DNA of 64,000 nucleotides from an uncultured Patescibacteria group bacterium (GCA_905478415.1 CAJQIG010000002.1:120834-184833), one strand, 5' to 3'. Counted from the first letter of the stretch, positions 10,901 to 37,453 are shown. The notes: generated from the sequence alone by a model not told the origin. Numbers and translations: made by a program.

Positions 10901-13645
10901 AGCTAGGGCAGCGGAAGTTTTGTATAGTTTTAAATACGAATCTGGAGTTGAAGTTCCAATGCCTACATTTGTTCCATTGTCGAAAAGCAAGGAGTTGGTC
11001 AGAGTATCGGCATCTGACCATTTAGAAATATAGTTAGTGGTACCAGATCCATCTGTGAGCGTGGTACCCCAAACTCTGGCATCGATTTCATCGGTAGTGA
11101 GTTGGTTGCTTCCATTGAGGATAACAACAGTATTATCAGTGCCTGTTCCGAGTCCTGAGAACGTGACGGTGCTCGTTGCTGCTAGAGTACTAATACTACT
11201 CAGATTGCCACTATTGAAATTCCAGTCCCCAGTGAGGTTTCCATCGTAGATAGTATTTGTACCCAAATCAAGAGTGCCTGCAAAATAAGCATTTCCACTG
11301 CTTTGCAACAGGATGTTTGCACTAGCCGTTGAATTTCCACCAACAGCTAAGTCTACAACGCCAGCAAACTCATTTTTTGGATGATAGACATTGAGGGTGT
11401 TCTCCCAAAGACCAGTGATAGAGCTGAAATCTGTGACACAGTTTGTTTCTCCGTCACCAGTACAAAATTTAGTTGCTTCTATAGTACCGTCAGAAACGGC
11501 AGTTCCAAAAGTTGAAAGACCAGAAGAAAGGTAGATATCTCCAACTACATCGAGTGGAGCTTGAGGGGAGGTTGAGCCAATACCTAGGTTTCCAGAGACA
11601 TAGACCTGATCATCAAGGGTGAGATTCCCGCTAGAACTGTAGATAGAGTTGCCATTGATGTCAAGCAGACTGTTTAAGATATCAATATCTGGAGTGCCAT
11701 CACCACCGTTTATAAGTAGGCGGTTAATATCGGTGCTGCTATCTTGAGTACGAAGGACGAGAGAACCACTGGTTCCACCACTGTTGGAGATATAGGAGCC
11801 ACCATTTCGATAGAAGGTGAGCTGGTTGCCGTTGAGCTGACTATAGAGTCCAGCACTAGAAGAGTAGGTAGTAATGGTGTTACTACCACCACCGTCACTT
11901 CCGAGTATGACATTACCTCCATCAGCAACATGAAGTTTTGCGCTGGGGTTATTAAGACCAGCGCCAATGTTTCCATTTTCATCGATCACACTTAAGGCAG
12001 TGCCAGAATTATTTTGCCATTCCTGAATGTTGGCTGTCCCACTGGGGCCACCTTTTGTTATCAAGGCAGTGCCTCCGGCATAAGTAGCGCTCAGTGTTGC
12101 TCCAGGAGCAGAAATATAGCCAGTTACATCGAGGTCAGACTGAACTTGCACTTGTCCAGTTCCGTCTGGAGACAGTGTGATATCTCCATTAGTCCCACTA
12201 CTTGTTTGTAGGGTTAGGGTTTCGGCCTCTATGGCGAAATTACCCGAAACAGCTTTGAGAAGAGGCGAAACTTCCCCCAAGATAATGTCACCGGTATTGT
12301 TCATAGTCACCACCGTGTTTTTTGTGGCTGCGCCGGTGGCGTCAATAGGATAGCCTTGCAGTGTTTCAGAGTTTAAAGCGTAGGGAACTGTCTTGATACT
12401 TTGTCGAGGAGTGAGTGTTTCAGTTGCGATCTCCACCTCGAGCCACACGTTTGAGTTCTCGGTAAAAACATCTTGGCTGATTTCACTACCACAAGTACTT
12501 CCGAGATCAGTATTAAAGATACCATCTTGATCTGGAGTGACACTACAAGTGCCAGAGCTCCAGAGTTGGCTGCCTGCAGTGTTAGCATCATAGAGGCGAA
12601 AGGCCATATCTGTAGCGGTAGTAATAGGGTTTTGACTGGTATCAGTTAAACGCCCCTGGAATTGAAGCACTCTATTTGGTCGAGTAGGGCTTGTAGGGTA
12701 AGCCAGGGGTGCTTTAGCATTTTTAATGAACTGGGTGTACCCAAAAATGCCAAAGGCAGCCACAAACAGTAAGATTATCACCAGGTTCAGGTAGGGGAGA
12801 AAGGTTTTTTGTTGTTGATCAGGTAGTAATTTACCCTGCAGGGTCCTCATCCCAGCTTTAATTCGACTTCTCATGTTCTGATTTGATTGGGCATTATCTC
12901 GAGTATTTATGTGTTCGTTTTGAGAATGAGATGATGTCACGGGAACTGAGGGTGCGTTTGAGGTTGGCACAGCGGTAAAGTGTAAGCGAGGCTCTTGTAC
13001 TGGAACAGTCTTACTTGAGGAAGAAGCAATGATCTTCTCAAGATCATTCCCAACTTCTTCAAGTTCTTTGATTGATGGAATGACTCCCTCTGTCATTAAC
13101 CAGAGGCCAAACTGAGTAATGCTGATGACTTTTCTTCTGATGGAAGAGGTCTTTAACCCCTTTTTTGCCTGTAGGACAACGAAAAGTGATAGTTCGTGTT
13201 TGTTTATGGCTCTTTGGAGCTCACTTTTCTGGGAAAATTGAAAAAATTGACTGATATCACTGCGATAATTTTTTATGGTTGATGCTGAGCAGTTGTCTGC
13301 TTTGAGTGCTAATAGGTATTCGTGAAGAAAAACTGTTGTCTGGTGGGGTGGATATTTTTGGACAAACTCAATCAAAGCTGTGCGTATCATTTGATCTTTT
13401 GTCTGGTGGTCCTCTGAGGTGTCCAAAAAGCGGATGAGTTCAGAAACAGGCCACTCACTGAGTGATTTTTTTTGTGAAAGATATTCGGCAAACAAAGCCG
13501 TGGCTTCACTGCGGTTGTGTTCACTGAGCAAAGCACTTTCCAAAAATGTGGAGAGTGAAGTCAGAATGCTAGGAATGTAACGGTTTTGGGCAGTCATTAT
13601 TTTATTTTTGCAAGTGTTTTTGACATGTGGCTCTACCAGATTCAT
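1976..13645 (-). CDS. Giant (3889 aa) membrane-anchored, fibre-like surface protein. Architecture: N-terminal cytoplasmic integrase-SAM-like domain, one TM segment, then a long extracellular region of tail-fibre-like beta-helical repeats.
   Basis: Single uninterrupted ORF. The N-terminal ~290 aa are hydrophilic and contain a Phage_integrase_N/SAM-like pattern (FLHEYLLALKADNCSASTIKNYRSDISQFF ... SSIRRKVISITQFGLWLMTEG). TM helix FLPYLNLVIILLFVAAFGIFGY follows. Dozens of repeats of the form GNVGIGT(S/T)(S/T)P..KLDV.G occur, with reiterated KAL.ILNETG(D/N)Q.....ASASG modules. Confidence 0.8.
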   Translation of the reverse strand: MNLVEPHVKNTCKNKIMTAQNRYIPSILTSLSTFLESALLSEHNRSEATALFAEYLSQKKSLSEWPVSELIRFLDTSEDHQTKDQMIRTALIEFVQKYPPHQTTVFLHEYLLALKADNCSASTIKNYRSDISQFFQFSQKSELQRAINKHELSLFVVLQAKKGLKTSSIRRKVISITQFGLWLMTEGVIPSIKELEEVGNDLEKIIASSSSKTVPVQEPRLHFTAVPTSNAPSVPVTSSHSQNEHINTRDNAQSNQNMRSRIKAGMRTLQGKLLPDQQQKTFLPYLNLVIILLFVAAFGIFGYTQFIKNAKAPLAYPTSPTRPNRVLQFQGRLTDTSQNPITTATDMAFRLYDANTAGSQLWSSGTCSVTPDQDGIFNTDLGSTCGSEISQDVFTENSNVWLEVEIATETLTPRQSIKTVPYALNSETLQGYPIDATGAATKNTVVTMNNTGDIILGEVSPLLKAVSGNFAIEAETLTLQTSSGTNGDITLSPDGTGQVQVQSDLDVTGYISAPGATLSATYAGGTALITKGGPSGTANIQEWQNNSGTALSVIDENGNIGAGLNNPSAKLHVADGGNVILGSDGGGSNTITTYSSSAGLYSQLNGNQLTFYRNGGSYISNSGGTSGSLVLRTQDSSTDINRLLINGGDGTPDIDILNSLLDINGNSIYSSSGNLTLDDQVYVSGNLGIGSTSPQAPLDVVGDIYLSSGLSTFGTAVSDGTIEATKFCTGDGETNCVTDFSSITGLWENTLNVYHPKNEFAGVVDLAVGGNSTASANILLQSSGNAYFAGTLDLGTNTIYDGNLTGDWNFNSGNLSSISTLAATSTVTFSGLGTGTDNTVVILNGSNQLTTDEIDARVWGTTLTDGSGTTNYISKWSDADTLTNSLLFDNGTNVGIGTSTPDSYLKLYKTSAALAAEELLKLSVSDDAGAYLSFRNATSADSLFSPQIRFQGSGSTVAGQIQAIATTDSGTDPLLTLTGQNTSSTIANRPILQVKNYTTVLTTWDQNGNVGIGTSTPVGLLNVEGAVVGKALSILNETGDQDILAASASGVTRFRIANNGYAYADRFTDISNSSYYIDPAAIVTSGVFNGNVGIGTNTPSYKLDVNGEANFTDAIRLNGDAGVVDYILTSSGGGLNNWTEPYSIVEAGYWDLTAGVFHPKPPYTDVVDLALGGNSTASANVHFQSNGEAYLAGNVGIGTSSPGAKLQLNTGSDSRIGQIIKANSGSQTANLQEWQNSSSTILSNIEADGDLNMRNAGILFNDANARIEQSSPLRLSITANTNDTFTNGLRLTSTSSEATATQYANSIYATRSVAGAATYNALQINTNVSASSGTQAVVRGMLNQVRLTGASTITSAYALHGRVDNESTGTITTAVAAYIDANINSGGGTITNNYGILVGSQNVGATNNYALYTNLGNVSLGDDLLLRNDNDRIQIGAGGDLDLYHTGSHSYITSATGNLIFDNMSTSGASIFQLGTNTTATSFQVLNNTSGSLFEVDGSGNVGIGSSSPGYKLDVNGEANFADAIRAGGDAGTSGYFLTSSAGGVNTWTDPASISGVTWWDNTLNVLHPTDEYASVVDLALGGTSTASATIHLLADGSAVFNQQGSDSDFRVEASGQANAFFVQGSDGNIGIGTGTPTHEVVVRKDQNANTAMLVSNETDNTGAYSSYLFETATRGGGFGLYADSFTGGGSLTHFAGRMGFAGYNGFEPLGLDFISNHASGDIRFFTGGLATSNERLRIDAAGNVGIGSTSPGYELDVVGELNLTDAIRVAGDAGTSGYLLTSSAGGANTWTDPATLGSVSWWDNTDNVLHPKDEYASVVDLALGGTSTASANIHLYADGRAYFADNVGIGIAPSTEALRVGGNGDILADDDITATDEFRTSADGTAADPKYTWTNDLDLGLFRGGTDILGFTTAGTEAMRIDASGNIGVGTTTPLGKLNLEGAAVGKALAILNETGDQAIFTASASGATKFVIANDGNVGIGTSNPGAELNLATGSFKIGTSDCNNSFCLDEDGFDTGFDYTIANHNGGSLYLMPDANVGIGTTTANAKLDVNGTIYFGTQIVARDDIDTKFVFGTNQIEMQAGGIRLLTSSQTAAFTGNVTGNLNGHDVDFNWYGDTNSDFFTLDAGTENVGIGTATPSSFKLEIAGDIGPTVDATYALGSASKRWSNLFISGNIAAAGLFDADTDTGIQVEESADEDKIRFDTAGSERMIIGADGNVGIGSTTPLGKLTIEGAAIGKALVILNETGNQDLLTASASGTTRFTVTNAGYAQADRFADISNTAYYIDPAAIATSGTFAGNVGIGTSNPATARLVVRNSSTEDIFNAFDGSTEVMTILDGGNVGIGTTAPLEKLHISNDSDADILLQEASNTSSFSSILGYKSRNTVASPSIVANGDGALSFVGRGYDGSNFLNLAEFRVEVDGTPGTNDMPGRLTFWTTPDGSSTSSERMRIDNQGNVGIGTINPSRFKLQLTGNIGPTTDDTYDLGSSTYRWQDLYLGPASLHIGTDGNEAVLSYNTTSNYLGFDPDGDTTNEVVILDSGNLGIGTVTPSSSLDIAIPWDNTSGPQITLGTVGHVSGDFAHAKIGTVETGSGSLGGMLFFSTKDNSGSVADAPIERMRIDSDGNVGIGSTNPTQKVDITSGNIQFSNSYGAYFAGSTMGTDATRIYSSGDRLHVRAEDVTGVAQFSSYGMYLPLAGQTYNLFTGGSIKAGHVEDASLDISTEVHITSSGDSYLSGGNVGINSTNPGEKLDVTGLIRASDNIQSGYGSGGVAMTINDGYGNANLTFNHMDGVPEQTGNAGRIEVNTDNTTGGAMSFEVGTNLTGGVAAALTEVMTILSTGNVGIGDTTPDAELEVNGDVLLTGNIYRNSHEDGFLVGGYNNIGANSTNTNPIFTIGSNYLPASTTLGNMYGIGYTHSNASFVSATPGGAGWGMYVSAGGVSRIFLNGTTGGGYFASNVGIGTTNPAAVLHTQGGYGTNVIFQHDGEIKYRANTTDVDDPPDIVFESSTGSQYSRIWSGLGSLLNLSGDSTTNADVTIKTDGLYFNNLSDFYIQQDATNRLLIASQTWNTADTGYVTLMGGATGGTDILKVLNGYAGHAHDEFTVKGNGTTYTRGSHDYAENILTSDITTQAADIVVVDPTKENEVVKSGHSEANNPDMVPTGFEQYANLEYPTDDSESIKTAWVKKTSKPYDNTVIGVISTTPGSLLGAWLEEEDFPGQIRPLALNGRTSIKVSTLNGVLNRGDAITTSVLPGIGMKSTQPGQIVGKVLESFDPSKLTCTNVPSLEAITWPDDPGSNLSSPCFRLPNGTYVGKAIVFVNIAWYDPTITLAENGQVVLTGDSSTGYRVKNSGQTVTSVTSLAKAFVANIQAGLTTTKDLVVQNTASIKTLSVESITINGQTLASYIQSITANQNTPNVAPLVSPIANNTVIKIASQSGSVLVTDSSNTTVATISSNGDTTLLGSLTAKNIVANSATISGSVSTDTLTANKTSLGSLLVEEATVSGTITATAIDTTSARIAALEAGIAQFEDAKAKTAEFVTATVSGTLYANNIDGLNEKTLTVTEKASLLAMLTTTDSIKSVADVVQTVETAGFTASSSADLNLTLADLSLSATDVTLEGDALFINNYFKVNGGAYVADNMGIGQSLFVEKDIHAGQSVTIANTLEIGENYIAYTATDSTSVFEIQPSGQGSLSLMAGLLILEENGTATINGSFTIENDATVKGTLFADLLKPTNFGNPLQVQVAGISDEDGEVRKSRFEIIDELGAPVATISAQGKAEFAGGLSVGSENLGTANLDTLDSDNRPILESQKTSGKAAIPSGTKEIKIKSSKVNKDSLIYVTPVGSTQNKVLYVKSQQEENPSEDKQGEFIVGFDEALDTEVQLNWWIVN
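7215..7860. repeat. Cassette within giant gene 1 that is ~88-90% identical at the DNA level, in inverted orientation, to 35268-35725 in giant gene 2. Giant gene 1 has a ~180-nt insertion relative to giant gene 2.
   Basis: Direct comparison of the reverse complement of 35268-35420 with 7700-7860, and of 35420-35720 with 7215-7520. Examples: ...agcaataacaaattttgtagcaccacttgctgaagctgtaaaaa... and ...ccacaat(c/t)tgag(t/a)(t/a)ccaaagtaaatagt(g/a)ccatttacatcaagct... Confidence 0.7.
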
Positions 13646-14205: not shown

Positions 14206-14955
14206 ATGAAAAAAAATAGTGTTACGCTCGCCTTGTTTTTATATCCAACCAAGGAGAGTCAAGATCGATTCTTAAAGCAGTCTAGCGTGTATGCGTTAGT
14301 TCCTTCGCTGACGAGGGGTGGCAAGCGTTCTTTGTTATACCATTTAGAGCAAGAAGCAGTTCTTTTTTCCGAGCGGGTGTCCGGTGACATCCAGTACTCG
14401 TTAACAGAGAAGGGGCAACGCCAGTTAATTGAGCTATTTCCGGCTTTAGATTCCAAGTGGGATACCTACGCTGGAACCTGGCAGTGCATCGTCTTTCAAC
14501 AAGCTCCTAAGAGTGATCCCCAATTCAGGTACCTACGTTCTCAGTTGGTGCGAGAGCATGCCATTGGACTTAGCAGAGGAGTATACTGTTCTCCTGATTC
14601 TTTCTCGACCAACTTGATTCAAATGTGTCAAAAGCTCTATCAAGACTGTGTGAGTATTTTCTCAGTGGCTTCTTGGGACTTTGGCTTTGAGAGAAGCTCT
14701 ATTACACGAAACTTTTCACTTGCAGATCTTGCAACTTCTTACTCAAGTGTTAGCACTGAAGTTGAGTCTTTGCTAGCTTCTGTTGATCAAAAGAGAAGAC
14801 CGAATGATCAGGAAAAAAAGCAGTTCTTTTCGGTATACAATCGATTTCGGGATATTTTGAGTGAAGATGTTGGGATTACTACTTACTACTATCCTCAGGT
14901 ACCATCTGGACTGCAATTACTTGCTCAGTTGCAAGAGCTCGCAGACACATTTTAG
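14206..14955 (+). CDS. PaaX-family-like transcriptional regulator
   Basis: N-terminal winged-helix-like region (RGGKRSLLYHLEQEAVLFSERVSGDIQYSLTEKGQRQL) and the PaaX-type core WDTYAGTWQCIVFQQAPKSDPQFRYLRSQLVREHAIGLSRGVYCSP (compare PaaX WDGxWxLVxFDIPE..R..R..LR..L...GFG.L..SVWVSP). Confidence 0.55.
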   Translation: MKKNSVTLALFLYPTKESQDRFLKQSSVYALVPSLTRGGKRSLLYHLEQEAVLFSERVSGDIQYSLTEKGQRQLIELFPALDSKWDTYAGTWQCIVFQQAPKSDPQFRYLRSQLVREHAIGLSRGVYCSPDSFSTNLIQMCQKLYQDCVSIFSVASWDFGFERSSITRNFSLADLATSYSSVSTEVESLLASVDQKRRPNDQEKKQFFSVYNRFRDILSEDVGITTYYYPQVPSGLQLLAQLQELADTF

Positions 14956-15718: not shown

Positions 15719-17767
15719 TTAAAATGACTGTTGTGTGAGTTCTTCGAATGAGGTTAGGGAAGTATCAAATACAAGCGGTTTTTCACCGATTGTAACCTCT
15801 TCAAAGCCCATGTTCCCTGATTCTCGATACCAAATATATTGGCTCTTAGTAATAGTTATGTAGTACAGACCAGGATCACAGTAGGCTCCATATTTGCCTT
15901 TTTTATTAGTTGTGACCAATGCTACCAACTCTGTCGTTTGGGGATCGCTTACTTTGATAACGACATTTTCGATAGGTACTCCATCACGAGTGGTAATGGT
16001 TCCACGGATGGTAGCTCGTTTGTTGCTAATGACATACTTTTTTGCAAAAACTATCAAGTAAAAGGCGATAACTGCATAGTTTAATCTAGTTGGGCTAATC
16101 AAGGTAAAAATCACTGAGAGAATAAACATGGGAATGAGCAAATTCTTCATTCTAAGGCGAGCTGCAGTCAACCTCAGCCAACTTTTGAGGTTCTTTTTTC
16201 TGACTTTTTCATCTTTGGGATCAATTGGAATCAAGAACAATTGATGCGTCTTATCGGTACTTACCCGAAACGTTTCTCCTTTGTAGAAATCATTTATACT
16301 CAAGTAATTCGGCTTTTCTTTGGTAGTTGGGAAGGTGTAATCCTGGTGGGTAACAGTAATCTTGTAGACGCCATGGGGGAGTTGAATACCCTGATAGATA
16401 CCATTCTCATCAGTCACCACTGTTTCGAAGATAGTTTCGCTTGAGTCAACGCTCTCAATTGTAAGGAGGGCGAAGGGAACTGGCTCGTTTGTGTCACTAT
16501 TAAACACAATTCCTTGTGGTTCCTTGGCTGGAAGGAGTCCAATTGCTTGTAGAAACCTGAAGAAAAGTTCAAGACTCAGCTGTCCGCCGTAGCTGAAAAG
16601 TAGTGAGAGCAAACTGAGAGTAGGCAACAGCGCGGTTACAATTAATGCTCCAATTGGTGAGATAGCTCTGATCGATTGTGTGATAGCTTCGATAATTTGT
16701 GGGGGAATACTGTTCGTAACCTCCTCTGGAGTAGCCTCGAGGGTTTCTTGGATGATCTCATGGATGATTTCTCGCGGTGGCGTAATTGAAATAATGATAA
16801 CAGGGCTGGGACTCGGTGAGGGAGTTGGTACTACTGAAGGACTTGGCTCTGGGGTAAATCCAGGAGTAGGGCTTGGAGATGGAGTGGGCGTTGGGCTAGG
16901 TGTCGGGGTAGGTGTCGGTGCTGGTGGAGGAATGATAATGATGATAGGGTCAATGACAATTTTTAGATCACTAATGACAGAAATATTTCCTGAAGAGTCA
17001 GAAATAACAAAGTCGAGGGTAATGACTACGTTCCGGGGAAGAATACCAACTTGAAAGTCCCACGAACCATCAGAACCTATGGTAAAAGTATGAGTCTGGG
17101 TTGGATCATCGGGAATAGTGATGGTGAGTTGTACCGATGCATTACTTTCGCCAGTACCCACCAGGAGTGGTTCATTGTTTGCTAGGTGAATTGGATCAGA
17201 TGGAACGGTGGCGGCATCACCAGTGTTGATGTCAACTGTTTCATCGCCAATAGTTGTGATCTCGAAGTAGGGAGCAGTAGTATCAATAGTAAAATCCCAG
17301 ACAACTGACTGAGAAAAGTTTCCAGCCTCATCATAGGCATATATCTGCCAAGTGTGGTCGCCGTCGGAGAAGCCAGATTTGGGGGTAAGGAAGAAGTGTG
17401 AAAGGCCACTATCATAGAGTAGTGTGTATTGACTGGTTGTAGTTGCCCCAGTAGGAATGGTATCGAAGAGAAGGACTCCATCACGCCAAAATTGATAGTG
17501 AGAGACATCGACATTATCTGTGGATGCCTGCCACTCAAATGTAGGAGTGGGGGTGGTGAGGGTTATTTCATCCTCAGGAGAAATAAGAATTGGTGTACTT
17601 GGAGGGATGATGTCTGGGACAGTTGCGGTGACCAATTGTGGTCTATTTTTAGGATTTGTGGTTAAGTCTTCACCAGGAAGCAGTCCGCTTTCTTGAGCTC
17701 CTGCACCCAGAGGTGAGAATACAAGTAAGAGGGAAACCAAAAATGCTAGAAGTCGTTTGTAGCGCAC
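15719..17767 (-). CDS. Secreted/membrane surface protein with an Ig/FN3-like module, a Pro/Thr-rich linker, TM helices and C-terminal carboxypeptidase-regulatory-like beta-sandwich domains
   Basis: Signal peptide MRYKRLLAFLVSLLLVFSPLGAGAQE. PT linker PPPAPTPTPTPSPTPTPSPSPTP. Hydrophobic helices in the middle. CarboxypepD_reg-like segments (GTITTRDGVPIENVVIKVSD...KKGKYG; NGIYQGIQLPHGVYKITVTHQDY). Confidence 0.55.
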   Translation of the reverse strand: MRYKRLLAFLVSLLLVFSPLGAGAQESGLLPGEDLTTNPKNRPQLVTATVPDIIPPSTPILISPEDEITLTTPTPTFEWQASTDNVDVSHYQFWRDGVLLFDTIPTGATTTSQYTLLYDSGLSHFFLTPKSGFSDGDHTWQIYAYDEAGNFSQSVVWDFTIDTTAPYFEITTIGDETVDINTGDAATVPSDPIHLANNEPLLVGTGESNASVQLTITIPDDPTQTHTFTIGSDGSWDFQVGILPRNVVITLDFVISDSSGNISVISDLKIVIDPIIIIIPPPAPTPTPTPSPTPTPSPSPTPGFTPEPSPSVVPTPSPSPSPVIIISITPPREIIHEIIQETLEATPEEVTNSIPPQIIEAITQSIRAISPIGALIVTALLPTLSLLSLLFSYGGQLSLELFFRFLQAIGLLPAKEPQGIVFNSDTNEPVPFALLTIESVDSSETIFETVVTDENGIYQGIQLPHGVYKITVTHQDYTFPTTKEKPNYLSINDFYKGETFRVSTDKTHQLFLIPIDPKDEKVRKKNLKSWLRLTAARLRMKNLLIPMFILSVIFTLISPTRLNYAVIAFYLIVFAKKYVISNKRATIRGTITTRDGVPIENVVIKVSDPQTTELVALVTTNKKGKYGAYCDPGLYYITITKSQYIWYRESGNMGFEEVTIGEKPLVFDTSLTSFEELTQQSF

Positions 17768-17810
17768 ATGTACTTATATTTCTGATTTTGTATTACACTT
17801 GGCAACAACA

Positions 17811-18878
17811 TTAGTCTTCGTGTTGTTCCAGTTTTTTACTTTGTAAACTCTGGATCTGTTCCTCTAAATTCTTGATCTGTTCCTCTTTGTTTCCATTTTT
17901 GTGTACTATGTGTCTTCGAATTGAAATTATCATTGCAACTAAGACTAACAATATGATAATTGCGGTCAGAACTAACTTGACTGGAAAGAGCCAAAATGAA
18001 GTGTTAGAAATTGCAATATTTCCTTGTTCACCATAGCTCATTATCAGCTTAGCTCTATAAAAGCCATGTCCCCAGACTCGATCCCATTTCCCAGAGAAAG
18101 CTCGGTTGTAGAGTGGGAAGATATTCTTACTTTCGATTTCAATAGTGTCAATTTTTTGGTTGAAGATGTTATAAATTTCAACAGACATTTGAGGGGTGAT
18201 ATGAATATCTGACTGGTTATCAACAAAGAATGAGAAATCTACTGGTCCAATTTCGGTTAGCTGAGGAAAGCTGAAGTCTCTGATAAAGGCTTCTTCGTTA
18301 ATAAGCCCATCAACAATTACATAGAAGAGAGAACCGACCTTTTGACTGATTGCAGAGGCAGATTGACCATCATCGAGAGCAATTCCTTGTGATGGTTCGT
18401 GTGTGACCATAGCATAGTGACCTCCTGGCAAAGCATTTTCTGGAACTTCGATCAGTACAGAAGTAGCAGCTGTTGTTTGTGGTTGGATAGTTTGCTGAGA
18501 GGGGGCAATCACAAGCCAGTTGGCTAAACTCCAGCGAGTGGGGGTTTCTTCCATCAAAGGAATTGGTGTTTCCCCATCAAGATCAAGCATAAAGTCTTGA
18601 GCGAGTGTTCTAATAGTGATGGGTTTTGTAGAGTTGTTTCTGATTCTTAGTTGCACTTGCTCTTTAGCTCCAGGAGCAAGCTTGATGATTTCCTGATCTC
18701 CAACTCTAGGGGGAATAGCTGTCAAGGTAATAGTGTCATCACTTTGAGAAAAATCTTGGGCATGGATGGTGTGAGTAAAGACGGTTGCTCCGAGAACAAG
18801 GGTAGCTACAGTGAAAGCTAAAGTCTTAAGTGAGAGCTGTGGGCGGGCAGTGTTCATGTAGTTCCTTATGGTCCTCAA
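17811..18878 (-). CDS. Surface protein with signal peptide and a C-terminal TM anchor plus coiled-coil tail (paralog of 20398-21381). DUF916-like architecture.
   Basis: N-terminal signal sequence, a ~280-aa extracellular domain, C-terminal TM LVLTAIIILLVLVAMIISI and tail NKEEQIKNLEEQIQSLQSK. Shares motifs with 20398-21381 (..VSVTP.. / IKPGSK..TITIEN..). Confidence 0.5.
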   Translation of the reverse strand: MRTIRNYMNTARPQLSLKTLAFTVATLVLGATVFTHTIHAQDFSQSDDTITLTAIPPRVGDQEIIKLAPGAKEQVQLRIRNNSTKPITIRTLAQDFMLDLDGETPIPLMEETPTRWSLANWLVIAPSQQTIQPQTTAATSVLIEVPENALPGGHYAMVTHEPSQGIALDDGQSASAISQKVGSLFYVIVDGLINEEAFIRDFSFPQLTEIGPVDFSFFVDNQSDIHITPQMSVEIYNIFNQKIDTIEIESKNIFPLYNRAFSGKWDRVWGHGFYRAKLIMSYGEQGNIAISNTSFWLFPVKLVLTAIIILLVLVAMIISIRRHIVHKNGNKEEQIKNLEEQIQSLQSKKLEQHED

Positions 18879-20323
18879 AATGTTGCGGTTGCTGTATAGG
18901 TAACGTAGTTTTCATAGTCACCTGCTGATTGTGTAGACGAGATGACGGCTCTGTAGCAGACATCAATGTTTTCATTATCAGCCACCGTGCTACTGCTAAA
19001 TATTTGTTGCGGTGATTGGCTATCTTCGGCGTCTGCGAACTGTCTAGCACAGTAGGTTCCGGTACAGCTACCAGTTGCAGTTGTGTACTCGAATGGCACA
19101 GTATTGGCGTCGGCATTCTCGATAGAGAATCCAAAGCCTTTTACAGAAGTTGTGTTCCATTCATCAATCAGTGCGTGGGTCATGGTGGAGTTATCACCAA
19201 CTGAATCAGGAATACATGATCCAGATGTGTTGTCGCCGGTACAAGTGGCTCCACTGAGTCCGAGCTGATCACTTTCGACAGCGGTAACGGCATAGCCATT
19301 AGTAGCGTTTGTTGAGACAGTAAGCGTCTGGGCAGCATCAGTAAATGATGAAATAGCAAGTTCGGCCAATGGTACGGCTGCAGCAGTGGTGGTGACATCG
19401 GTGGTGACGCCACATTTAGTTGCACCGCTGGAAACACCTGCAATCGAGAAGGTAATTTGAGGTGCGACGCTGGCAGTAATTCGAACTGCTTCAATAACTC
19501 CAATAGCAACAGTGGTACTGTCTACAGTACTAAAGTCACTGCCAATATGTTGGACAACAATCTTGTATGAATCAGCAGTTCCCGTGGTGTGGCCAGTATC
19601 AGGTGCGGGGTTGATAATAGAGTTGATGGTAATAGCATCGTTGGTAGTACCATCAAAAGCAGTTCCAATGGCTCCAGTACCTGAATAGAGACACTCGTAG
19701 GAGTGGTAGTCGGTGCTGCCAATAGTAACCGCGCTAGCAGTAGCTGTTCCAGTTACAAAGTCATAGCCAGTGAGATCTGTCGGACAAGTCACGGTTGGGG
19801 CACTGGTCCCAAAGTCAAAAGCACCCTGATCTGGTAAACCATCGTTAGCATCTGCATCTGCATCAAGAGTTGGAACCAGAATTCTAAAACCACCATTCGC
19901 AACGGCATTGGCAGTGTTAAACCGAACAGTGTGTGTGGCAGATTGGGTAGAAATAACATCATCACTAGTATCAGCATCACCAGTACCCAGAACAGGAGTG
20001 ATATTGACCAGGGAATTGCTGACTATATTGGTAATGGTATAGAGACTCATGGTTCCAGCAGTTCCGACTGAAAGAACATCATCAGTTTGGAGTTGATCTG
20101 TTGTTGTTGAGGGGTAACCAGATGTGTTGATAATAACCTGAGATGAAGATTCTGTGTTCCCAGCACCAAGTACACCTCTAAATGAGGGGCGAGAGTTAGA
20201 AACAGTGACTGAAACGTTGGTCAAACTGGCAGATTCACTTCGATGTGCAAATCCTCCAGCAGCAACAATAGCAGTTAAAAATACTGATAAAACAATGGAT
20301 TTTTTTAGTTTATTTCTCTTCAT
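18875..20323 (-). CDS. Secreted Thr/Ser/Gly-rich, beta-rich surface protein (paralog of 21389-22144)
   Basis: Signal peptide MKRNKLKKSIVLSVFLTAIVAAGGFA. Shares blocks with 21389-22144 (SVKGFGFSIENADANTVPF vs TVSGFGFNIQGDDVATDFV). C-terminal alternating strand SAGDYENYVTYTATATF vs AAGTYETAVVYVAVPGY. Confidence 0.5.
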   Translation of the reverse strand: MKRNKLKKSIVLSVFLTAIVAAGGFAHRSESASLTNVSVTVSNSRPSFRGVLGAGNTESSSQVIINTSGYPSTTTDQLQTDDVLSVGTAGTMSLYTITNIVSNSLVNITPVLGTGDADTSDDVISTQSATHTVRFNTANAVANGGFRILVPTLDADADANDGLPDQGAFDFGTSAPTVTCPTDLTGYDFVTGTATASAVTIGSTDYHSYECLYSGTGAIGTAFDGTTNDAITINSIINPAPDTGHTTGTADSYKIVVQHIGSDFSTVDSTTVAIGVIEAVRITASVAPQITFSIAGVSSGATKCGVTTDVTTTAAAVPLAELAISSFTDAAQTLTVSTNATNGYAVTAVESDQLGLSGATCTGDNTSGSCIPDSVGDNSTMTHALIDEWNTTSVKGFGFSIENADANTVPFEYTTATGSCTGTYCARQFADAEDSQSPQQIFSSSTVADNENIDVCYRAVISSTQSAGDYENYVTYTATATF

Positions 20324-20397
20324 TTTTGCGCAATACTAAACTCTCAAAAGAGTATTTTAGTGCTTAGATTTAAGTTTAGCTGGTATTTCCCCTGACT

Positions 20398-21381
20398 TCA
20401 AGAGTCAGAGTGTTGTTTTTTTCTTTTTACTATGAAAGTAATTCCTGCAGCACTCAATAAGAGAGTTATGAGTGTTGGAAGTATGGGGAACGCAAAAAAA
20501 GTAAATGTGTCGTAGGCAATGATGTCTTGGCTTTCGCTGGTATAGGGTTGTGTTACTGTCACTTCTACGGTGTAGAGTCCGAGTAAAAAGGAAGGGTCAA
20601 ACGCAAAGGGAACTGCCTCTGGCTCGATATCTTTTTGAAAGTCGGTTCTCATAGCTCTGAGTTCTCGAGCACTAAAGCCAAGGATAGTGTCAGGGAAAAT
20701 GTTGAATGCAGCAACCTGAGAGTCAAACATATTCTTGACGACTACAGTTCCAGCTGCATTTGTAGCAGCAAAGTTATTATTTTTAATAGAGGGTTTGATA
20801 GTAATTTTTTTAAAGCTATCTACGAACTTTGGAACAGCGATACTATTGATATTTATTAATTGAGAGATTTGTTCATCTTTCGAAATAAGCACAATCATAT
20901 TGCTTCCGATGGCCCCAACAAGCTGTGAAGTTGAGCCTGGATTAGTGCTTTGCGTGGGGATTGATTCAAACATAACTGTCAGCGGGTATTCCTTCTCTTC
21001 GGCATCTTCAGGAACGGTGAACAAAAGTGCCAGCTGAGCCCGTTTTCCACCAGGAATGGTGATTTCTTGTTGAGAAATAGTTTCTATGTCGAGGTAGGGG
21101 AATGACGACTCTCCTACTAGAATGGGTCGTCCTGTAGTGCCATCGGCTGTGAAATCAAAGATGAGTGGTCTGAGGGTACTATTTAAAGCTCCTTGGTTTT
21201 CGATAGTGATGGTGTGACGAACTTTCGATCCTGGTTTGATTCGTATATACGAAGTGTCTGGGGTGACCGAGACAGTAAAGGCCTGTGTTTGTGCTGCAAC
21301 GGGAGTAGGGGTAATCACTCGACACAACAAAGTAATGGTGAGGATACTGTAGGAAAGCAGCTGGGTTATTTTTGTGTTCAT
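20398..21381 (-). CDS. Surface protein with signal peptide and C-terminal TM anchor (paralog of 17811-18878)
   Basis: Signal peptide, extracellular domain, C-terminal TM LPTLITLLLSAAGITFIV then KRKKQHSDS. Confidence 0.5.
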   Translation of the reverse strand: MNTKITQLLSYSILTITLLCRVITPTPVAAQTQAFTVSVTPDTSYIRIKPGSKVRHTITIENQGALNSTLRPLIFDFTADGTTGRPILVGESSFPYLDIETISQQEITIPGGKRAQLALLFTVPEDAEEKEYPLTVMFESIPTQSTNPGSTSQLVGAIGSNMIVLISKDEQISQLININSIAVPKFVDSFKKITIKPSIKNNNFAATNAAGTVVVKNMFDSQVAAFNIFPDTILGFSARELRAMRTDFQKDIEPEAVPFAFDPSFLLGLYTVEVTVTQPYTSESQDIIAYDTFTFFAFPILPTLITLLLSAAGITFIVKRKKQHSDS

Positions 21382-21388
21382 AATGCTA

Positions 21389-22144
21389 TTAATACCCTGG
21401 TACGGCTACGTACACAACCGCTGTCTCATAAGTTCCAGCAGCAGTGTTACCGCTTTTAGCGGCCTGATAGGTGACGGTTGATTGCCGTTTATAGCCAACA
21501 TTATTTGACGACATGATTGCTTGCATAGGAGCTGCGGCTTCATCATCAGCAAAAGGGCGAAAGTAGGTATTGTTAACAAAATCTGTTGCGACATCATCGC
21601 CTTGGATATTAAAGCCGAAGCCACTGACTGTGGGGTCAGTCCAGATACCAGCCGAAGCAGTTGTGCAAGTTCCAGCATCGCAAGTAGTGTCTGTAATTTC
21701 GTCTGTATCTCCTTGAAGTCTGAGGGGGTGAAGTTCGTACGCATACACCGAGTAGCCGCCAGCTCCACGGGTAGTTATTTCGAGGGTATGTGTATCTGTA
21801 CCAAAGGCCCCACTGACTAACTCTCCCAAGTTCATGTTGACGTCACTGATAATAAAACTAAAGTCTTTGATCTGATAGATATACTGAAATCCAGCTCCAA
21901 CAAAGTAGCCAGAAGTACCGTATTCGCCAAAGGCTCCGGCTGCCGTTTGTCCAACAGTGTCCGTAACATTGTAGTTGGCCGAACTTTTTTCTCCAGAAGT
22001 CACATTGAAATTGCCGAATTGAATAACATACGAATCTGACTCTAATCGCTCAGCTTTGACGCGGTCAACTTGCCAAAAGAAGAGAGAAAAGACGAAGAAT
22101 CCCAGGAGGCTTAGAATGAAAAAAGATTTCGTAGTGTTGTGCAT
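21389..22144 (-). CDS. Secreted beta-rich surface protein (paralog of 18875-20323)
   Basis: Signal/anchor FFILSLLGFFVFSLFFW. Paralogous blocks as listed for 18875-20323. Confidence 0.5.
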   Translation of the reverse strand: MHNTTKSFFILSLLGFFVFSLFFWQVDRVKAERLESDSYVIQFGNFNVTSGEKSSANYNVTDTVGQTAAGAFGEYGTSGYFVGAGFQYIYQIKDFSFIISDVNMNLGELVSGAFGTDTHTLEITTRGAGGYSVYAYELHPLRLQGDTDEITDTTCDAGTCTTASAGIWTDPTVSGFGFNIQGDDVATDFVNNTYFRPFADDEAAAPMQAIMSSNNVGYKRQSTVTYQAAKSGNTAAGTYETAVVYVAVPGY

Positions 22145-22836
22145 TACTCATTTACTTTTTTTAACAGTTTTTCGCTTTCGGAAACGATCAAAGTTATTTG
22201 TGAGTGAAGGGTTTTCTCAAGCTCTGTTTGGGGAGTGCCTAGGGAGCTGAGTGTTGCAGTTTTGGGGAGTAAAAACTGTTGGATATAGTCTTCGAGAGTA
22301 GTGATTTCAGCCTGTGATGCTGCAACTAGCGCTTCTTCTTCCTCAATAATCTGTTTTTCTAGCAGCGCAGTGGTGTGTCGATCTTTTGCGTAGAGCATCA
22401 CGCCGGTGATCAGCGGAATATTCACTAGGATAATCATTTCTTGGACAGTGAAAGTGGTAATCAAAAGTAGCTGAAGAGCAAAGGTACAACCAGCAATAAG
22501 GAGTGCCGAAGTTTTTTCGAGACTAAACACGATTAAGAACAGGTACAGATAGGTGAGTGGGTAGGCCCATGAATGGGTGTTCCCGGTGGCAGAAATGAGG
22601 AGCATAAAGAGCAAGGTAATAGGAATGAGTTCAGAGTTAGTATGATTAGGAAAAGGACTTTGAAGGTTGTTCCGATTATGTTTAAACCTGAGAAATACAA
22701 ATAATAAAAAAGTCAGAGCCACCAGCTGCAGTGAGTAGATTTCTAGAAATGGAACCGACATCCAGATACCAATAATGGCAAAACTTAAGACCACGAATGG
22801 CAGGCGGGTATCAATGGACATACGTTCAGTATACAT
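22144..22836 (-). CDS. Integral membrane protein with a C-terminal cytoplasmic coiled-coil; function unknown
   Basis: Four to five hydrophobic helices, then an acidic/coiled-coil tail (EKQIIEEEEALVAASQAEITTLEDY). Confidence 0.45.
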   Translation of the reverse strand: MYTERMSIDTRLPFVVLSFAIIGIWMSVPFLEIYSLQLVALTFLLFVFLRFKHNRNNLQSPFPNHTNSELIPITLLFMLLISATGNTHSWAYPLTYLYLFLIVFSLEKTSALLIAGCTFALQLLLITTFTVQEMIILVNIPLITGVMLYAKDRHTTALLEKQIIEEEEALVAASQAEITTLEDYIQQFLLPKTATLSSLGTPQTELEKTLHSQITLIVSESEKLLKKVNE

Positions 22837-25498: not shown

Positions 25499-25792
25499 TT
25501 ATTCGACCCCGATATTGAGATCAAAGACAAGAAAGACTTCGGCCGCATTTTCAAAAATCTTGAGAACTCCTTTTTGGAAGATGAATTCCTGAGTGGTTTC
25601 ATTGGCTAAATGGACAACAAGTTTATTTTCATTCAATGCTCCAGTAATAACAGAAACAAAGTTAGTGTGGCCTGAGAGTACACTGAAAGGGCCAGCTTCA
25701 TTGACCGCTTCGAGAGCTTTAATTTCCTCGGCAAAAAGGAGTCCTGTTTCATCAAAAATTTTTAAATGAAATGTTTCTGGAATGTTTGGCAT
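25499..25792 (-). CDS. atpC: F-type ATP synthase epsilon subunit (divergent)
   Basis: Position immediately after atpD. N-terminal beta-sandwich pattern FHLKIFDETGLLFAEEIKALEAVNEAGPFSVLSGHTNFVSVITGALNENKL resembles the epsilon fold. Confidence 0.55.
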   Translation of the reverse strand: MPNIPETFHLKIFDETGLLFAEEIKALEAVNEAGPFSVLSGHTNFVSVITGALNENKLVVHLANETTQEFIFQKGVLKIFENAAEVFLVFDLNIGVE

Positions 25793-25806
25793 ACTGATTT
25801 AGAGGG

Positions 25807-27483
25807 CTATGTGTTTGTTTCTTCCATCTTGGTTGGAGTGTAGTTGACAACTCGTTTTTCGAGGTGCTCAGTCACCTTTGTTTGTGAGCTTTTGTTTGCT
25901 TCGGCCATAAGAGTGGCGGTGTATTTATCTTTTATAGAGGCGGTATCTTCTGTTGATTTTTTCTTAGCGGCAATTTTTTCTTGAATGAGTGTTTGAGCTT
26001 CGGTGTCAGAAAGTGTCATGGGAATTGGCTCAGATTGTGTTTGGGTTGTTTGGTTGGTTGGTAGTACGGGACCCGACGACTTAAGGGTGACAGTTGGAGT
26101 ATTTTTTTTCCAAGCATCATCTATTTTTTCGATGTAGAGGAAGAGATCTGGGTCTGCATCATCAAAGGCACCAGAAAGAATTTTTTCGATGTCGATGAGT
26201 GTTGTGTTGGGGGTGGCAAAAACCCCTGGTTTTCCGGTTTGTGGCTCGGCCACAGACAAGCTTTGGGTCATGTAGTTCTGCAAAAGAATAGAACGTTTGT
26301 ATTTTTTTTGATCTTCGGCAGAAAGTTCTGAAAGTCCTACAAGTGATACAATTCGTTCAATTTCTTTGGCAGATTCAAGGACTTTTTTGGCTTCTAAGTA
26401 GAGTCCAAAATGTTTTTCTCCTACAGTTTCTGGAGTTAGAGCTGATGAATTAGACTCGAGTAAATCAACGGCAGGGAGCCGTCCAGACTGATAGACATCT
26501 CGAGAAAGGACGATATAACCGTCGAGATAGTCAAAGGTTGATCTAACACTGTAATCCAGGAGGTCGTCAGAAGGGAGATAGATGGCTTCGATAGTTGTAA
26601 TGTGGGCTGACTTATTAGAGACGAGTCTTTCGTGAAGTGTGCCGATCTCGGAAGGGAGTGTGGGCTGATAGCCTTCTTCGGAAGGAATGGCTTTCATAAG
26701 TGTGGCTAGTTCGTATCCTGCTTGACTAAATCGGTACATGTTGTCAATGAAGAAGAGCACGTCTTTGCCTTCATCACGGAAGTGCTCGGCTATTGTAGCC
26801 GATGCAGAGGCGGTTCTAAAACGAACTGCTGGATTTTCTCCCATTTGCCCCAGGACCATGGTCGTTTTTTTGAGCACATCGGAAGCCTCGAGGGTTTCGA
26901 GGAGTTCATGGGCTTCTCTAGAACGTTCTCCAACAGCGCTAAAGACAGAGACAGTTTCAGAGTCGCTTTTGTTGTTGTTAGTAACAACATTATGGATAAG
27001 TTCGGTAAGCAAGATTGTTTTTCCGAGGCCAGCCCCACCAACCAATCCAGTCTTACTACCTTTAAGTATGGGAGTAAAGAAATCAATGGCTCGAATACCA
27101 GTCGTGATCACTTCAGAAGGGATGTAGGTATCTTCGATACTGGTTTTTTTGTGAGAGTGAATTGGTTTGCGTGTCGTTGCTAATGGTGCTTTGCCATCAT
27201 GCGGAGTCCCAAAAATATCAAAAGCTCTGCCCAAGACCGCGTCTCCGACTGGAATAGAGAGTGGTTCTCCAGTGCTAATCACCTCGGTACCTCTAGAGAG
27301 CCTGATTTCATCACTCAAGATGAAGCAGAAGTAGTGTTGCTCGCTGGCTGAGGCAATAATTTCAAGCTTTACTGCTGGGTTGTCAGCCAGAGTTAAAATA
27401 TCGAAGATACGTGGTTGTTCATCGAGAAATTCGACCTCAGCCACGGTGCTTCTGATAGATTTGATACTGCCTCTGAGTGCCAT
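25807..27483 (-). CDS. atpD: F-type ATP synthase beta subunit with an unusual ~90-aa Thr/Gln/Lys-rich C-terminal extension
   Basis: GGAGLGKTILLTELIHN P-loop, VSVFSAVGERSREAHEL, QPTLPSEIGTLHERL...IEAIYLPSDDLLDYSVRSTFDYLDGYIVLSR. 558 aa versus the usual ~470. Confidence 0.9.
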   Translation of the reverse strand: MALRGSIKSIRSTVAEVEFLDEQPRIFDILTLADNPAVKLEIIASASEQHYFCFILSDEIRLSRGTEVISTGEPLSIPVGDAVLGRAFDIFGTPHDGKAPLATTRKPIHSHKKTSIEDTYIPSEVITTGIRAIDFFTPILKGSKTGLVGGAGLGKTILLTELIHNVVTNNNKSDSETVSVFSAVGERSREAHELLETLEASDVLKKTTMVLGQMGENPAVRFRTASASATIAEHFRDEGKDVLFFIDNMYRFSQAGYELATLMKAIPSEEGYQPTLPSEIGTLHERLVSNKSAHITTIEAIYLPSDDLLDYSVRSTFDYLDGYIVLSRDVYQSGRLPAVDLLESNSSALTPETVGEKHFGLYLEAKKVLESAKEIERIVSLVGLSELSAEDQKKYKRSILLQNYMTQSLSVAEPQTGKPGVFATPNTTLIDIEKILSGAFDDADPDLFLYIEKIDDAWKKNTPTVTLKSSGPVLPTNQTTQTQSEPIPMTLSDTEAQTLIQEKIAAKKKSTEDTASIKDKYTATLMAEANKSSQTKVTEHLEKRVVNYTPTKMEETNT

Positions 27484-27541
27484 GTTATTGTTGCTTACTT
27501 TTTATTTTTTTATGTCTGTACTGGTTATTCAGTATAGAGTA

Positions 27542-28411
27542 CTACTGCCAAAAATGCATACCAGCCAAGCGATTTCTCTGTTTTCTACTATCTTTTTTAC
27601 GTAGGATTTTCACTGTTTGTTGGCTAACTTTTTTTCGTTCTTCCTCAATATTTTGTTGAGTGTATTGCAGCGTTGTAATTCGAGCTCCCAGAGTAGCTAG
27701 CTGGGCTTCACGCATTTTTTGTTGAAGGAGAGAAGCTAAAATTTGGATTTCAAAAAAGTGGAGGATTTTCTTTTTGTCTGGTTCAAAAAAAAAGTGGCGG
27801 TTCTGTCGCTCGGCTTCTAGTAGTTTATCACCAAGTGGGATGTCTCCAGAGATGGTACTCGATTGAGGTTCCTGGTGCATGATAGTGACAAAATAGGGGT
27901 AAAAGACTTCAACCTGTTCAAACTGTAGGATGTGTTCAAAGAAATCACTATTTTCGGATAAGTTAATGTTTTTCTCTTTTATGTCGAAGTAGGCGAATTG
28001 CATTCCTTCTGGAAAGTACTCATGAAAAAGACGCTTGGCAGTGGCACCAGTAATGACAATCTCAAATTCATTTTCAGAACTCTTCTTAGCAAACTCTCTA
28101 AACGATCTGCGAATTACGTCTGTCGAGAACTTGGTTTCAAATGCAATAAACACTGCCACACGCTTCCCATTTTTTTCAAGTGTCGAGAAAGATAGACTGG
28201 AAGAGTTGCTCTGTTTCTCAAAGAGTTTTTTGATTGATTGTTTAACATCAATAAAGGTCTCGATCAGGCCTTCAGAAAAAGCTCGACTATTAATGGTGGC
28301 ATCTCTATTTTTTTGCATCTGGTAGATGGTTAGTTTTTGATATGCAGAAAAGAAATCATTAATAGTAATGAGGGAATCTTGTTGCAGCTGAAGGTCTTTT
28401 AAATTTGACAT
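27542..28411 (-). CDS. atpG: F-type ATP synthase gamma subunit (divergent)
   Basis: Located between atpA and atpD. N-terminus MSNLKDLQLQ.. and C-terminal helix (EAQLATLGARITTLQ) are gamma-like. Confidence 0.6.
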   Translation of the reverse strand: MSNLKDLQLQQDSLITINDFFSAYQKLTIYQMQKNRDATINSRAFSEGLIETFIDVKQSIKKLFEKQSNSSSLSFSTLEKNGKRVAVFIAFETKFSTDVIRRSFREFAKKSSENEFEIVITGATAKRLFHEYFPEGMQFAYFDIKEKNINLSENSDFFEHILQFEQVEVFYPYFVTIMHQEPQSSTISGDIPLGDKLLEAERQNRHFFFEPDKKKILHFFEIQILASLLQQKMREAQLATLGARITTLQYTQQNIEEERKKVSQQTVKILRKKDSRKQRNRLAGMHFWQ

Positions 28412-36772: not shown

Positions 36773-37453
36773 ATGTTCCAAGAGCTTTCTTTTAGTTCAG
36801 TTACCAAAACCCAACTTTTCACCATGGGGGCTGTACTCCTTTTCTTAAGTGGTATAGCTACCGTTGGTTACGGACTTTGGGTTCTCTTCATCTCTCCTAG
36901 TACTGTATATAGTGCTGAAAGCCCGATTTCATGCGACACAGACGCTAATCCAGAGGAAAAACAAGACAACGTGGTAACAGAGATCACCGTAGCAGCGAGT
37001 GGAGCCGTTACTAACCCGGGTGTTTATACGCTTCAAGAAGATGCTCGGGTGGGTGATCTGGTAGCTGAAGCTGGTGGGTTTTCTAAAGTGGCGGATCCGG
37101 TGGTTCTCAGTCAATCGCTCAACTTGGCAAGGTCGCTTGCTGATGGTGAGGGAGTCTACATTCCTCAATTAGTCGATGAGGAGGTCTCTGCTGTGTGTGC
37201 TCAACTAGCTCAACTCTCAGAGAGCACTGGACTTCAACCACTTAAAAATGAAAAACAGGAGAGCTTCTTTGGATCAGTGGTTTCTGTAAATACAGCTTCA
37301 AACGAAGAACTCGAATCATTGTCAGGCATTGGCGAAAAGCGAGCAGAAGCAATTATTGGAGGAAGGCCATACACACAGTTGGATCAGTTAGTGGAACAAA
37401 AAATTTTATCAGAATCTCTCTTTTCAGAGTTGAAAGATTTGATATCTTTATGA
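36773..37453 (+). CDS. comEA: Competence protein ComEA (membrane anchor + SLBB domain + helix-hairpin-helix DNA-binding domain)
   Basis: TM anchor. SLBB-like segment VTEITVAASGAVTNPGVYTLQEDARVGDLVAEAGG. C-terminal HhH: SVNTASNEELESLSGIGEKRAEAIIGGRPYTQLDQL. Confidence 0.8.
   Translation: MFQELSFSSVTKTQLFTMGAVLLFLSGIATVGYGLWVLFISPSTVYSAESPISCDTDANPEEKQDNVVTEITVAASGAVTNPGVYTLQEDARVGDLVAEAGGFSKVADPVVLSQSLNLARSLADGEGVYIPQLVDEEVSAVCAQLAQLSESTGLQPLKNEKQESFFGSVVSVNTASNEELESLSGIGEKRAEAIIGGRPYTQLDQLVEQKILSESLFSELKDLISL

Follow-up and report, generated by a model that had tools for sequence, protein, structure and literature searches.

The window analysed here, a stretch of 64,000 nt (one strand) from an uncultured Patescibacteria group bacterium (GCA_905478415.1 CAJQIG010000002.1:120834-184833), carries at 15719-22144 a cluster of five consecutive minus-strand open reading frames (ORFs) for exported proteins. 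This cluster is very probably a divergent Pam-type pilus operon of an ultrasmall Microgenomatia (Pacebacteria/Woesebacteria-like) bacterium of the candidate phyla radiation (CPR), with an usher-less assembly that works by chaperones and donor-strand exchange. As such, it is a new member of the Pam system that has already been described, and not a new kind of system. Pam pili are the sole pilus class so far known as CPR-specific, and are thought to make the first contact with the host cell. They are known from the preprint of Troman et al. (bioRxiv 10.64898/2026.03.03.709456), the source of the NCBIfam models NF058581 and NF058579, in which cryo-electron microscopy solved two filaments from Ca. 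Mycosynbacter amalyticus, a parasite belonging to the Saccharimonadia. Donor-strand exchange links their subunits, the linker of one making the C-terminal domain of the next complete, and the linker and its binding site are the most conserved parts of PamA and PamB, both of which contain paired cysteines. PamC and PamD are FimC/PapD-like chaperones with an unusual C-terminal transmembrane (TM) helix, and the pam operon also encodes a small tip subunit, PamT, the pilin-like PamE and PamR, an RbmA-like terminator or anchor with two FnIII domains, a C-terminal TM helix and an N-terminal strand. Homologues were found in CPR bacteria only, chiefly Saccharimonadia and Microgenomatia, and include a Roizmanbacteria protein ~21% identical to PamA (10.64898/2026.03.03.709456).

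Read along the minus strand, the cluster comprises A1 (21389-22144, 251 aa), a small Pam-type subunit that is PamT-like and a candidate tip pilin; B1 (20398-21381, 327 aa), a membrane-anchored, chaperone-like protein resembling both PamC/PamD and the WxLIP proteins of Gram-positive bacteria; A2 (18875-20323, 482 aa), a large Pam-type pilin that is PamA-like and the candidate major subunit; B2 (17811-18857, 348 aa), a second membrane-anchored, chaperone-like protein; and C682 (15719-17767, 682 aa), an exported protein with immunoglobulin (Ig)-like domains, a PT-linker and multiple TM segments. Intergenic gaps range from 7 to 74 nt, and hydropathy reveals an N-terminal hydrophobic, signal-peptide-like segment in all five proteins, as a preliminary description of the region had proposed. 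Four of the ORFs lie exactly where that description had placed them, and only the start of B2 has moved, from a TTG at 18878 to the ATG at 18857 that is used in public gene calls, such that B2 and A2 do not overlap. Independent gene calls on metagenome contigs with an identical A2 protein agree on lengths of 251, 327, 482, 348 and 682 aa. A further gene, TM230 (22144-22836, minus strand), encodes a polytopic membrane protein of 230 aa, and its stop overlaps the start codon of A1; it is probably the sixth member of the cluster, and its first gene.

The secreted and the anchored proteins form two pairs of paralogues, as had been suggested, with similarities that are far above chance. Over 160 aa of the C-terminal domain, A1 and A2 are 34% identical (E = 1e-14); B1 and B2, aligned end to end, are 23% identical (E = 2e-9). 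Comparison of family profiles built from orthologues yields 99.8% probability (E = 6.6e-29) for the former pair and 100% (E = 4.7e-43) for the latter; with signal peptides and TM helices trimmed, the respective profile E-values are 2.7e-30 and 3.8e-38. The GFGF motif blocks on which the relationship of the secreted proteins had been proposed are present (KGFGFSIE and SGFGFNIQ), as is the C-terminal strand motif of A1 and A2 (YENYVTYTATATF and YETAVVYVAVPGY). Beyond A1, A2, B1 and B2, no further pilin-like or chaperone-like genes occur in the window. A promoter and terminator scan gave results at chance level only, and a search of PHROGs produced no relevant match.

The assignment to the Pam system is carried foremost by A1 and A2. 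Neither protein has a match in Pfam, and SCPU and the other Pfam pilin families were rejected for both. Using NCBIfam (release 20), A1 matches NF058581 (CPR_Pam_pilin_C) with an E-value of 8e-6 (26 bits, positions 5-148 of the 148 in the profile), and A2 matches it with an E-value of 5e-4 (20 bits) across the whole 148-position profile. The same model is found in 27 of 40 members of the A2 family (best E = 4.4e-11) and in every one of the 10 A1 orthologues scanned (best score 37 bits). The model for PamT, NF058579 (CPR_pilus_PamT, 241 positions), is matched nearly end to end by 6 of the 10 A1 orthologues (best E = 2.7e-9, 36.8 bits), which have the same length as the model; the A1 of the window is not itself among its matches at E ≤ 1. 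Judged as sequence evidence of homology, these sub-cut-off matches are significant. The view of the preliminary description that no known family could be confidently recognised has thus been overtaken, as NF058581, NF058579 and the 2026 preprint describe just such a family.

The organisation of A2 points in the same direction. It consists of a signal peptide, an N-terminal beta-sandwich region (residues ~33-276), a conserved linker (~277-289) and a C-terminal domain (~290-482). An AlphaFold2 model of the protein, made from a 40-sequence alignment and with a mean pLDDT of 89.8, is nearly all beta-strand and has the layout of a Pam-type two-domain pilin, in that its strands fall into two blocks, residues 35-276 and 290-480. 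Between strands 266-276 and 290-296 lie residues 277-289 (IEAVRITASVAPQ; 19457-19495, minus strand), to which DSSP assigns no strand in the monomer model. Together with the strands of the C-terminal domain, and the C-terminal strand, this linker is the most conserved part of the A2 family, and all eight cysteines of A2 are invariant across the family. From its conservation and its position, which is that of the donated linker of PamA and PamB, the segment is a candidate for the donated strand. The preliminary description had instead likened the C-termini of the secreted proteins to the donor strands of fimbrial subunits; the link to donor-strand assembly holds, by way of the Pam system, but the Pam donor is the interdomain linker, and the conserved C-terminal strand of A1 and A2 more likely belongs to the acceptor domain than is itself donated.

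In A1, the signal peptide (residues 1-31) is followed by a strongly conserved N-terminal region (32-94), and the C-terminal domain (~95-251), which is of the Pam pilin type, contains two cysteines, at 155 and 160. Its mature N-terminus, residues 32-94 (21863-22051, minus strand), is the most conserved part of the protein; here an S-x-(S/N)-Y-x-(I/V) repeat occurs twice (SDSYVIQFGNFNVTSGEKSSANYNVTDTVGQ), ahead of a nearly invariant GAGFQYIYQI. This region is a candidate donor strand, tip cap or chaperone-binding site.

With regard to the anchored proteins, hydropathy agrees with the proposed layout of a signal peptide and, towards the C-terminus, one TM segment ahead of a short, basic tail. In B1 the TM segment lies at residues ~300-318 and is followed by the tail KRKKQHSDS; in B2 it lies at ~292-313, and the helical tail of ~35 aa is predicted to be cytoplasmic. 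An AlphaFold2 model of B2 (pLDDT 83) has two beta-sandwich domains and then a long helix (293-347), and the homology of B1 to B2 suggests a two-domain ectodomain there also. When the B2 model was compared with solved structures using Foldseek, the best match was 9i25_C (E = 1.2e-12), described as 'WxLIP from Enterococcus faecium locus A bound to long WxL', followed by a second WxLIP entry, 9i1y, and by the chaperones CfaA, CupB2, DraB, YadV, CsuC, Caf1M and FimC (E = 1e-10 to 1e-7). RbmA was also among the matches.

The resemblance to WxLIP extends to sequence. Lactic acid bacteria, enterococci and Listeria possess WxL clusters, in which WxLIP (DUF916, DUF3324 and a TM helix) is encoded with small and large WxL proteins (PMC10599100). 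The Pfam model of the first of these domains, PF06030 (WxLIP_PGBD, formerly DUF916), is matched by 36 of 46 members of the B family (best E = 2e-6), all sub-threshold; the window's B1 and B2 fall under its 27.3-bit threshold, no Pfam gathering threshold is reached in the B family, and no match to a DUF3324-domain model is listed for the B proteins. A search of PDB with the B2-family profile retrieved EfmWxLIP1 (E = 0.0015). For a direct comparison, eight plasmid-borne DUF916/DUF3324 loci (Enterococcus, Lactococcus, Latilactobacillus, Listeria, Lactiplantibacillus and Levilactobacillus) were used, seven of which supplied sequences, giving seven WxLIP proteins and twelve WxL domains. Profiles trimmed of signal peptides and TM helices were aligned with hhalign, with cross-type negative controls at E = 0.36. 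The core of B1 aligned with WxLIP at 92.4% probability (E = 5.3e-7) and that of B2 at 94.5% (E = 7.7e-8), in both cases through ~220 columns over both domains, whereas A1 (E = 0.23) and the C-terminal domain of A2 (E = 0.12) did no better against the 12 WxL domains than the controls. PF13731, the model of the WxL domain with its dual Trp-x-Leu motif, likewise has no match in A1, A2 or 40 relatives, and the candidacy of A1 and A2 as WxL-domain proteins was rejected on these two grounds. The profile alignments therefore support B1 and B2 as remote homologues of WxLIP, with secreted partners that are not detectably WxL proteins. The preliminary description had proposed DUF916-type anchored proteins alongside WxL-type secreted ones, and only the former part of this parallel survives.

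The cluster recurs widely, and in a fixed arrangement. A word-indexed search with the A2 family gave 543 matches, of which the small number with a named source are all 'hypothetical' and come from metagenome-assembled genomes (MAGs) of Woesebacteria, Pacebacteria or Patescibacteria. An exhaustive search with A2 yielded 1191 representative clusters with a threshold of E ≤ 1e-3, and 220 when this was tightened to 1e-30, with the distant matches likewise under the cut-off of NF058581. A scan with one genome per species identified 74 loci, from Pacebacteria (80% identity), Woesebacteria, Microgenomates, Cerribacteria and Roizmanbacteria (34-37%); the CPR-titled records among these additionally include Paceibacterota and unclassified Patescibacteria. 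Many species-representative MAG records with the operon (loci L005-L071) are titled 'uncultured Pseudomonadales bacterium', 'Gammaproteobacteria', 'Vitreimonas sp.', 'Limisphaerales' or 'Methylococcaceae'. Due to their gene content and synteny, which are those of Patescibacteria, these titles look like mislabelling or bin contamination.

Synteny was assessed by tblastn of the window's proteins against 77 fetched loci. The conserved order starts with LeuRS on the opposite strand, continues with TM230-A1-B1-A2-B2-C682 and ends with a PaaX-like gene, again on the opposite strand, and a gene for a giant protein. A2 is found in all 77 loci, B2 in 74, B1 in 62, A1 in 60, TM230 in 48 and C682 in 45, and many of the absences fall in loci on short or truncated contigs. 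The place of B1 is directly behind A1, and that of C682 directly behind B2; the full order recurs in about 60 Microgenomatia genomes, with the alternation of subunit and anchored partner kept in about 60 loci. The earlier suggestion of a lineage-specific surface appendage, with a duplicated secreted/anchored module as its basis, is supported.

Set beside the Pam system, the locus shares a CPR host, Sec-exported pilins and a C-terminal truncated-Ig domain that is caught by the same hidden Markov models. Both have a large two-domain pilin together with a PamT-like protein of ~250 aa, cysteine-rich subunits, no usher, and two paralogous PapD/FimC-like chaperones with a C-terminal TM helix (for B2 by its model, for B1 by paralogy). 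ATP synthase genes are conserved neighbours of pam, and a tail-fibre-like gene is central in its neighbourhood network (10.64898/2026.03.03.709456); both are found near the present cluster also. The locus differs in belonging to the Microgenomatia branch, in scoring under the NCBIfam cut-offs, and in its compactness, with two subunits in strict alternation with their chaperones. There is no PamB/PamE-like third pilin and no RbmA-like PamR, and C682 and TM230 flank the core instead.

Several observations weigh against the assignment of the cluster to the Pam system. The curated cut-offs, 55 bits for NF058581 and 240 bits for the equivalog model NF058579, are not reached by the scores obtained, which are 20-37 bits and at most 37 bits, respectively. 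None of the Pam models in NCBIfam matches B1 or B2, and a scan of the B family is likewise empty; nor does any match C682 or six of its orthologues. No PamB- or PamE-like third pilin is present in the 64-kb window and no RbmA-like PamR gene in the cluster, the architecture of C682 being different. A fold search with the A2 model returned generic beta-sandwich proteins and weak matches to pilins (CfaE/CfaB, SafD and Csu pilins) only. The solved Pam structures were not among its top matches, nor were they recovered by sequence searches of PDB, where A1, A2 and the A2-family profile gave zero matches at E ≤ 10 in a copy that apparently lacks Pam structures 25PZ/25QA. Furthermore, a Pam filament has been seen in one Saccharimonadia species only, M. 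amalyticus (10.64898/2026.03.03.709456), and the bridge from there to the Microgenomatia rests on the NCBIfam models and on the preprint's own statement regarding the latter group.

Of the remaining two proteins, C682 consists, in order, of a signal peptide, a conserved N-terminal segment (LVTATVPD..PP.TPILISP), Big_13-type Ig domains, a PT-rich linker, and TM segments interleaved with two CarboxypepD_reg domains (Pfam; Big_13 E = 1.7e-13, CarboxypepD_reg E = 7.6e-15). The linker, which the preliminary description had already noted, lies at residues ~279-322 (16802-16933). Conservation is found mostly in the N-terminal half, the C-terminal half being poorly conserved. Its constant place behind B2, together with membrane anchoring and a conserved, strand-like segment at the N-terminus, makes C682 a candidate for the membrane base, anchor or terminator of the pilus, in analogy to PamR. 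TM230 displays about 5 hydrophobic segments followed by a soluble, coiled-coil-like C-terminal tail, has no match in Pfam or NCBIfam, and is a candidate for a base or anchor component.

From these parts, and on the precedents of the Pam model and of chaperone-usher pili, assembly could proceed as follows. All products would leave the cytoplasm via Sec. The C-terminal Ig-like domains of A1 (PamT-like) and A2 (PamA-like) would be incomplete by themselves, and at the outer face of the cytoplasmic membrane each subunit would be captured by the chaperone whose gene lies just downstream, B1 for A1 and B2 for A2. With their two-domain fold of the PapD/FimC/WxLIP kind, and tethered by the C-terminal TM helix, these chaperones would temporarily lend the missing strand, for which residues ~172-182 of B2 (QKVGSLFYVIV) are a candidate. 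The linker strand of an incoming A2 would then displace the strand of the chaperone, thereby elongating a linear, disulfide-stabilised filament. No usher would be needed since there is no outer membrane to cross. A1 would start the filament at its tip, A2 would form the shaft, and at the base a role in anchoring or organisation may fall to C682 and TM230.

As B1 and B2 are homologous to WxLIP in both domains, a different explanation suggests itself, namely a non-filamentous surface complex of the WxL type, in which each anchored B protein would hold a secreted A protein one-to-one by strand insertion, in the manner put forward for WxL clusters in lactic acid bacteria, with no polymer being formed. 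The two kinds of locus have much in common, as B1 and B2 share both Ig-like domains, the signal peptide and the C-terminal TM helix with WxLIP, and the gene pattern of WxL clusters, with a small secreted protein, an anchored two-Ig protein and a large secreted protein that shares a C-terminal domain with the small one, is the same. Moreover, an AlphaFold2 prediction has a hairpin strand of WxLIP filling the gap in the beta-sandwich of the WxL domain (PMC10599100). WxL complexes, however, are described as peptidoglycan-bound adhesin complexes rather than filaments, and their hosts are Bacillota, not CPR bacteria. A1 and A2 lack the WxL signature, as outlined above, and match Pam pilin models; the small LPXTG protein is missing here; and in M. 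amalyticus such Pam proteins assemble into filaments. An explanation along WxL lines is accordingly improbable. One may also ask whether the cluster holds unrelated surface adhesins or S-layer-like proteins, duplicated by chance, with the B proteins as Ig-fold adhesins or RbmA-like matrix scaffolds. Two-domain Ig-like folds are common, RbmA and other non-chaperones occur among the Foldseek matches of B2, and the A2 model matches many generic beta-sandwich proteins. Against this stand the strict alternation of subunit and anchored partner in about 60 loci and the top fold matches of B2, which are strand-donating WxLIP and pilus chaperones; chance duplication would also leave the Pam-model matches and the pam-like neighbourhood unexplained, and it is less likely still than a complex of the WxL type.

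In favour of some other, classical kind of pilus (chaperone-usher, sortase-dependent, type V or type IV) are the fold of B2, which is like that of chaperone-usher chaperones, and the weak matches of A2 to CfaE/CfaB, SafD and the Csu pilins, but we regard it as highly improbable. The defining parts of each are missing, and on this basis sortase, chaperone-usher, type IV and type V pili were excluded. No gene product of the cluster matches an usher or sortase family in Pfam or NCBIfam, the [LIV]Px[TSA]G motif is absent from all five proteins (no LPXTG protein is therefore among them), and the N-termini of A1 and A2 are not of the type IV pilin kind. As neither protein has a cysteine in or just after the signal peptide, there is no lipobox. 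With chaperone-usher systems (Pap/Fim, CFA/I, Caf1 and Csu) the cluster has in common the two-domain Ig-like chaperone fold and, presumably, donor-strand complementation and exchange of incomplete Ig-like subunits. The present system differs in having neither usher nor outer membrane, in tethering its chaperone to the membrane, in the extra N-terminal domain of its subunits, and in a donor strand that presumably comes from a linker within the subunit, where chaperone-usher pili use an N-terminal extension, and chaperone-usher proteins show no significant sequence similarity to the cluster.

A Pam-type pilus operon thus remains much the best account of the cluster, and within it the relationship of the B proteins to WxLIP raises a broader possibility. 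The Pam chaperones of CPR bacteria and the WxLIP proteins (DUF916/DUF3324) of Bacillota could be one family, with Pam pili and WxL complexes as two branches of an ancient, usher-less system of single-membrane bacteria that relies on a tethered chaperone and strand complementation, although we hold this to be somewhat doubtful at present. A stronger form would have the C-terminal domains of Pam pilins and the WxL domains homologous as well, having diverged beyond detection by sequence; in that case strand exchange might also join WxL proteins into oligomers. WxL and DUF916 are unmentioned in the Pam preprint (10.64898/2026.03.03.709456), and the text on WxL proteins neither contains the word chaperone nor mentions chaperone/pili assembly of the Pam kind (PMC10599100). 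The connection may therefore be new, though literature beyond that searched could cover it.

As a separate observation, the WxL proteins of four of the plasmid loci (L078, L081, L082 and L083) end in a strand AG(E/D)Y.A.I.W.L, for example AGEYTAKINWDLLDTPA, which by eye resembles the Pam-like C-terminal strand AGDYENYVTYTATATF / AGTYETAVVYVAVPGY. Given that the profile comparison between WxL and A proteins is not significant, this resemblance may be coincidence.

These findings extend the Pam system by a compact version with two subunits and two chaperones that is widespread, and strongly syntenic, in Microgenomatia. The source-named members of the A2 family are called hypothetical because their scores lie under the NCBIfam cut-offs, and lowering these cut-offs, or adding Microgenomatia seeds, would annotate hundreds of genomes. 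The link between chaperone and WxLIP, in turn, relates a CPR pilus to an adhesion system that is as yet poorly understood, that of enterococci, Listeria and lactobacilli, and suggests a common mechanism that is testable.

Regarding the neighbourhood, genes for the alpha, gamma, beta and epsilon subunits of an F-type ATP synthase (25499-29880, minus strand; Pfam) lie just beyond LeuRS, and ATP synthase also adjoins the cluster in 7 related loci (10-kb flank). The beta subunit (25807-27483, minus strand; 558 aa) has a Ser/Thr/Lys-rich C-terminal extension of ~100 residues beyond its last Pfam domain. Further along, at 32087-36730 on the plus strand, a 1547-aa protein contains a Peptidase_S74 domain (tail-fibre/endosialidase chaperone; PF13884, E = 1e-12, residues 1244-1295) and is probably the 'tail fibre-like protein' of pam neighbourhoods.

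On the other side of the cluster, a giant protein of 3889 aa is encoded at 1976-13645 (minus strand), its only Pfam match being an N-terminal phage-integrase SAM-like domain (PF02899, E = 3.6e-8). Behind this domain come a TM segment and then a Gly/Thr/Ser-rich repeat region of ~3500 residues in which the motif 'GNVGIGT..P' recurs. In 44/77 loci the N-terminal part of the protein is found in synteny with the cluster, to whose surface apparatus the giant protein may belong. The PaaX-like protein (14206-14955, plus strand; 249 aa) is encoded between this gene and C682, on the opposite strand; it is kept there in 43/77 loci and is a candidate local regulator, its matches to PaaX_M (E = 0.0014) and TIGR02277 (E = 6e-4) being weak. 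Finally, competence genes occupy 36773-39859 on the plus strand, encoding a ComEA-like protein (SLBB and HHH) and ComEC. The latter is apparently split into two overlapping ORFs, one with the Competence domain (37975-38934) and one with the metallo-beta-lactamase domain (38882-39859), which could reflect either a frameshift or a genuine split.

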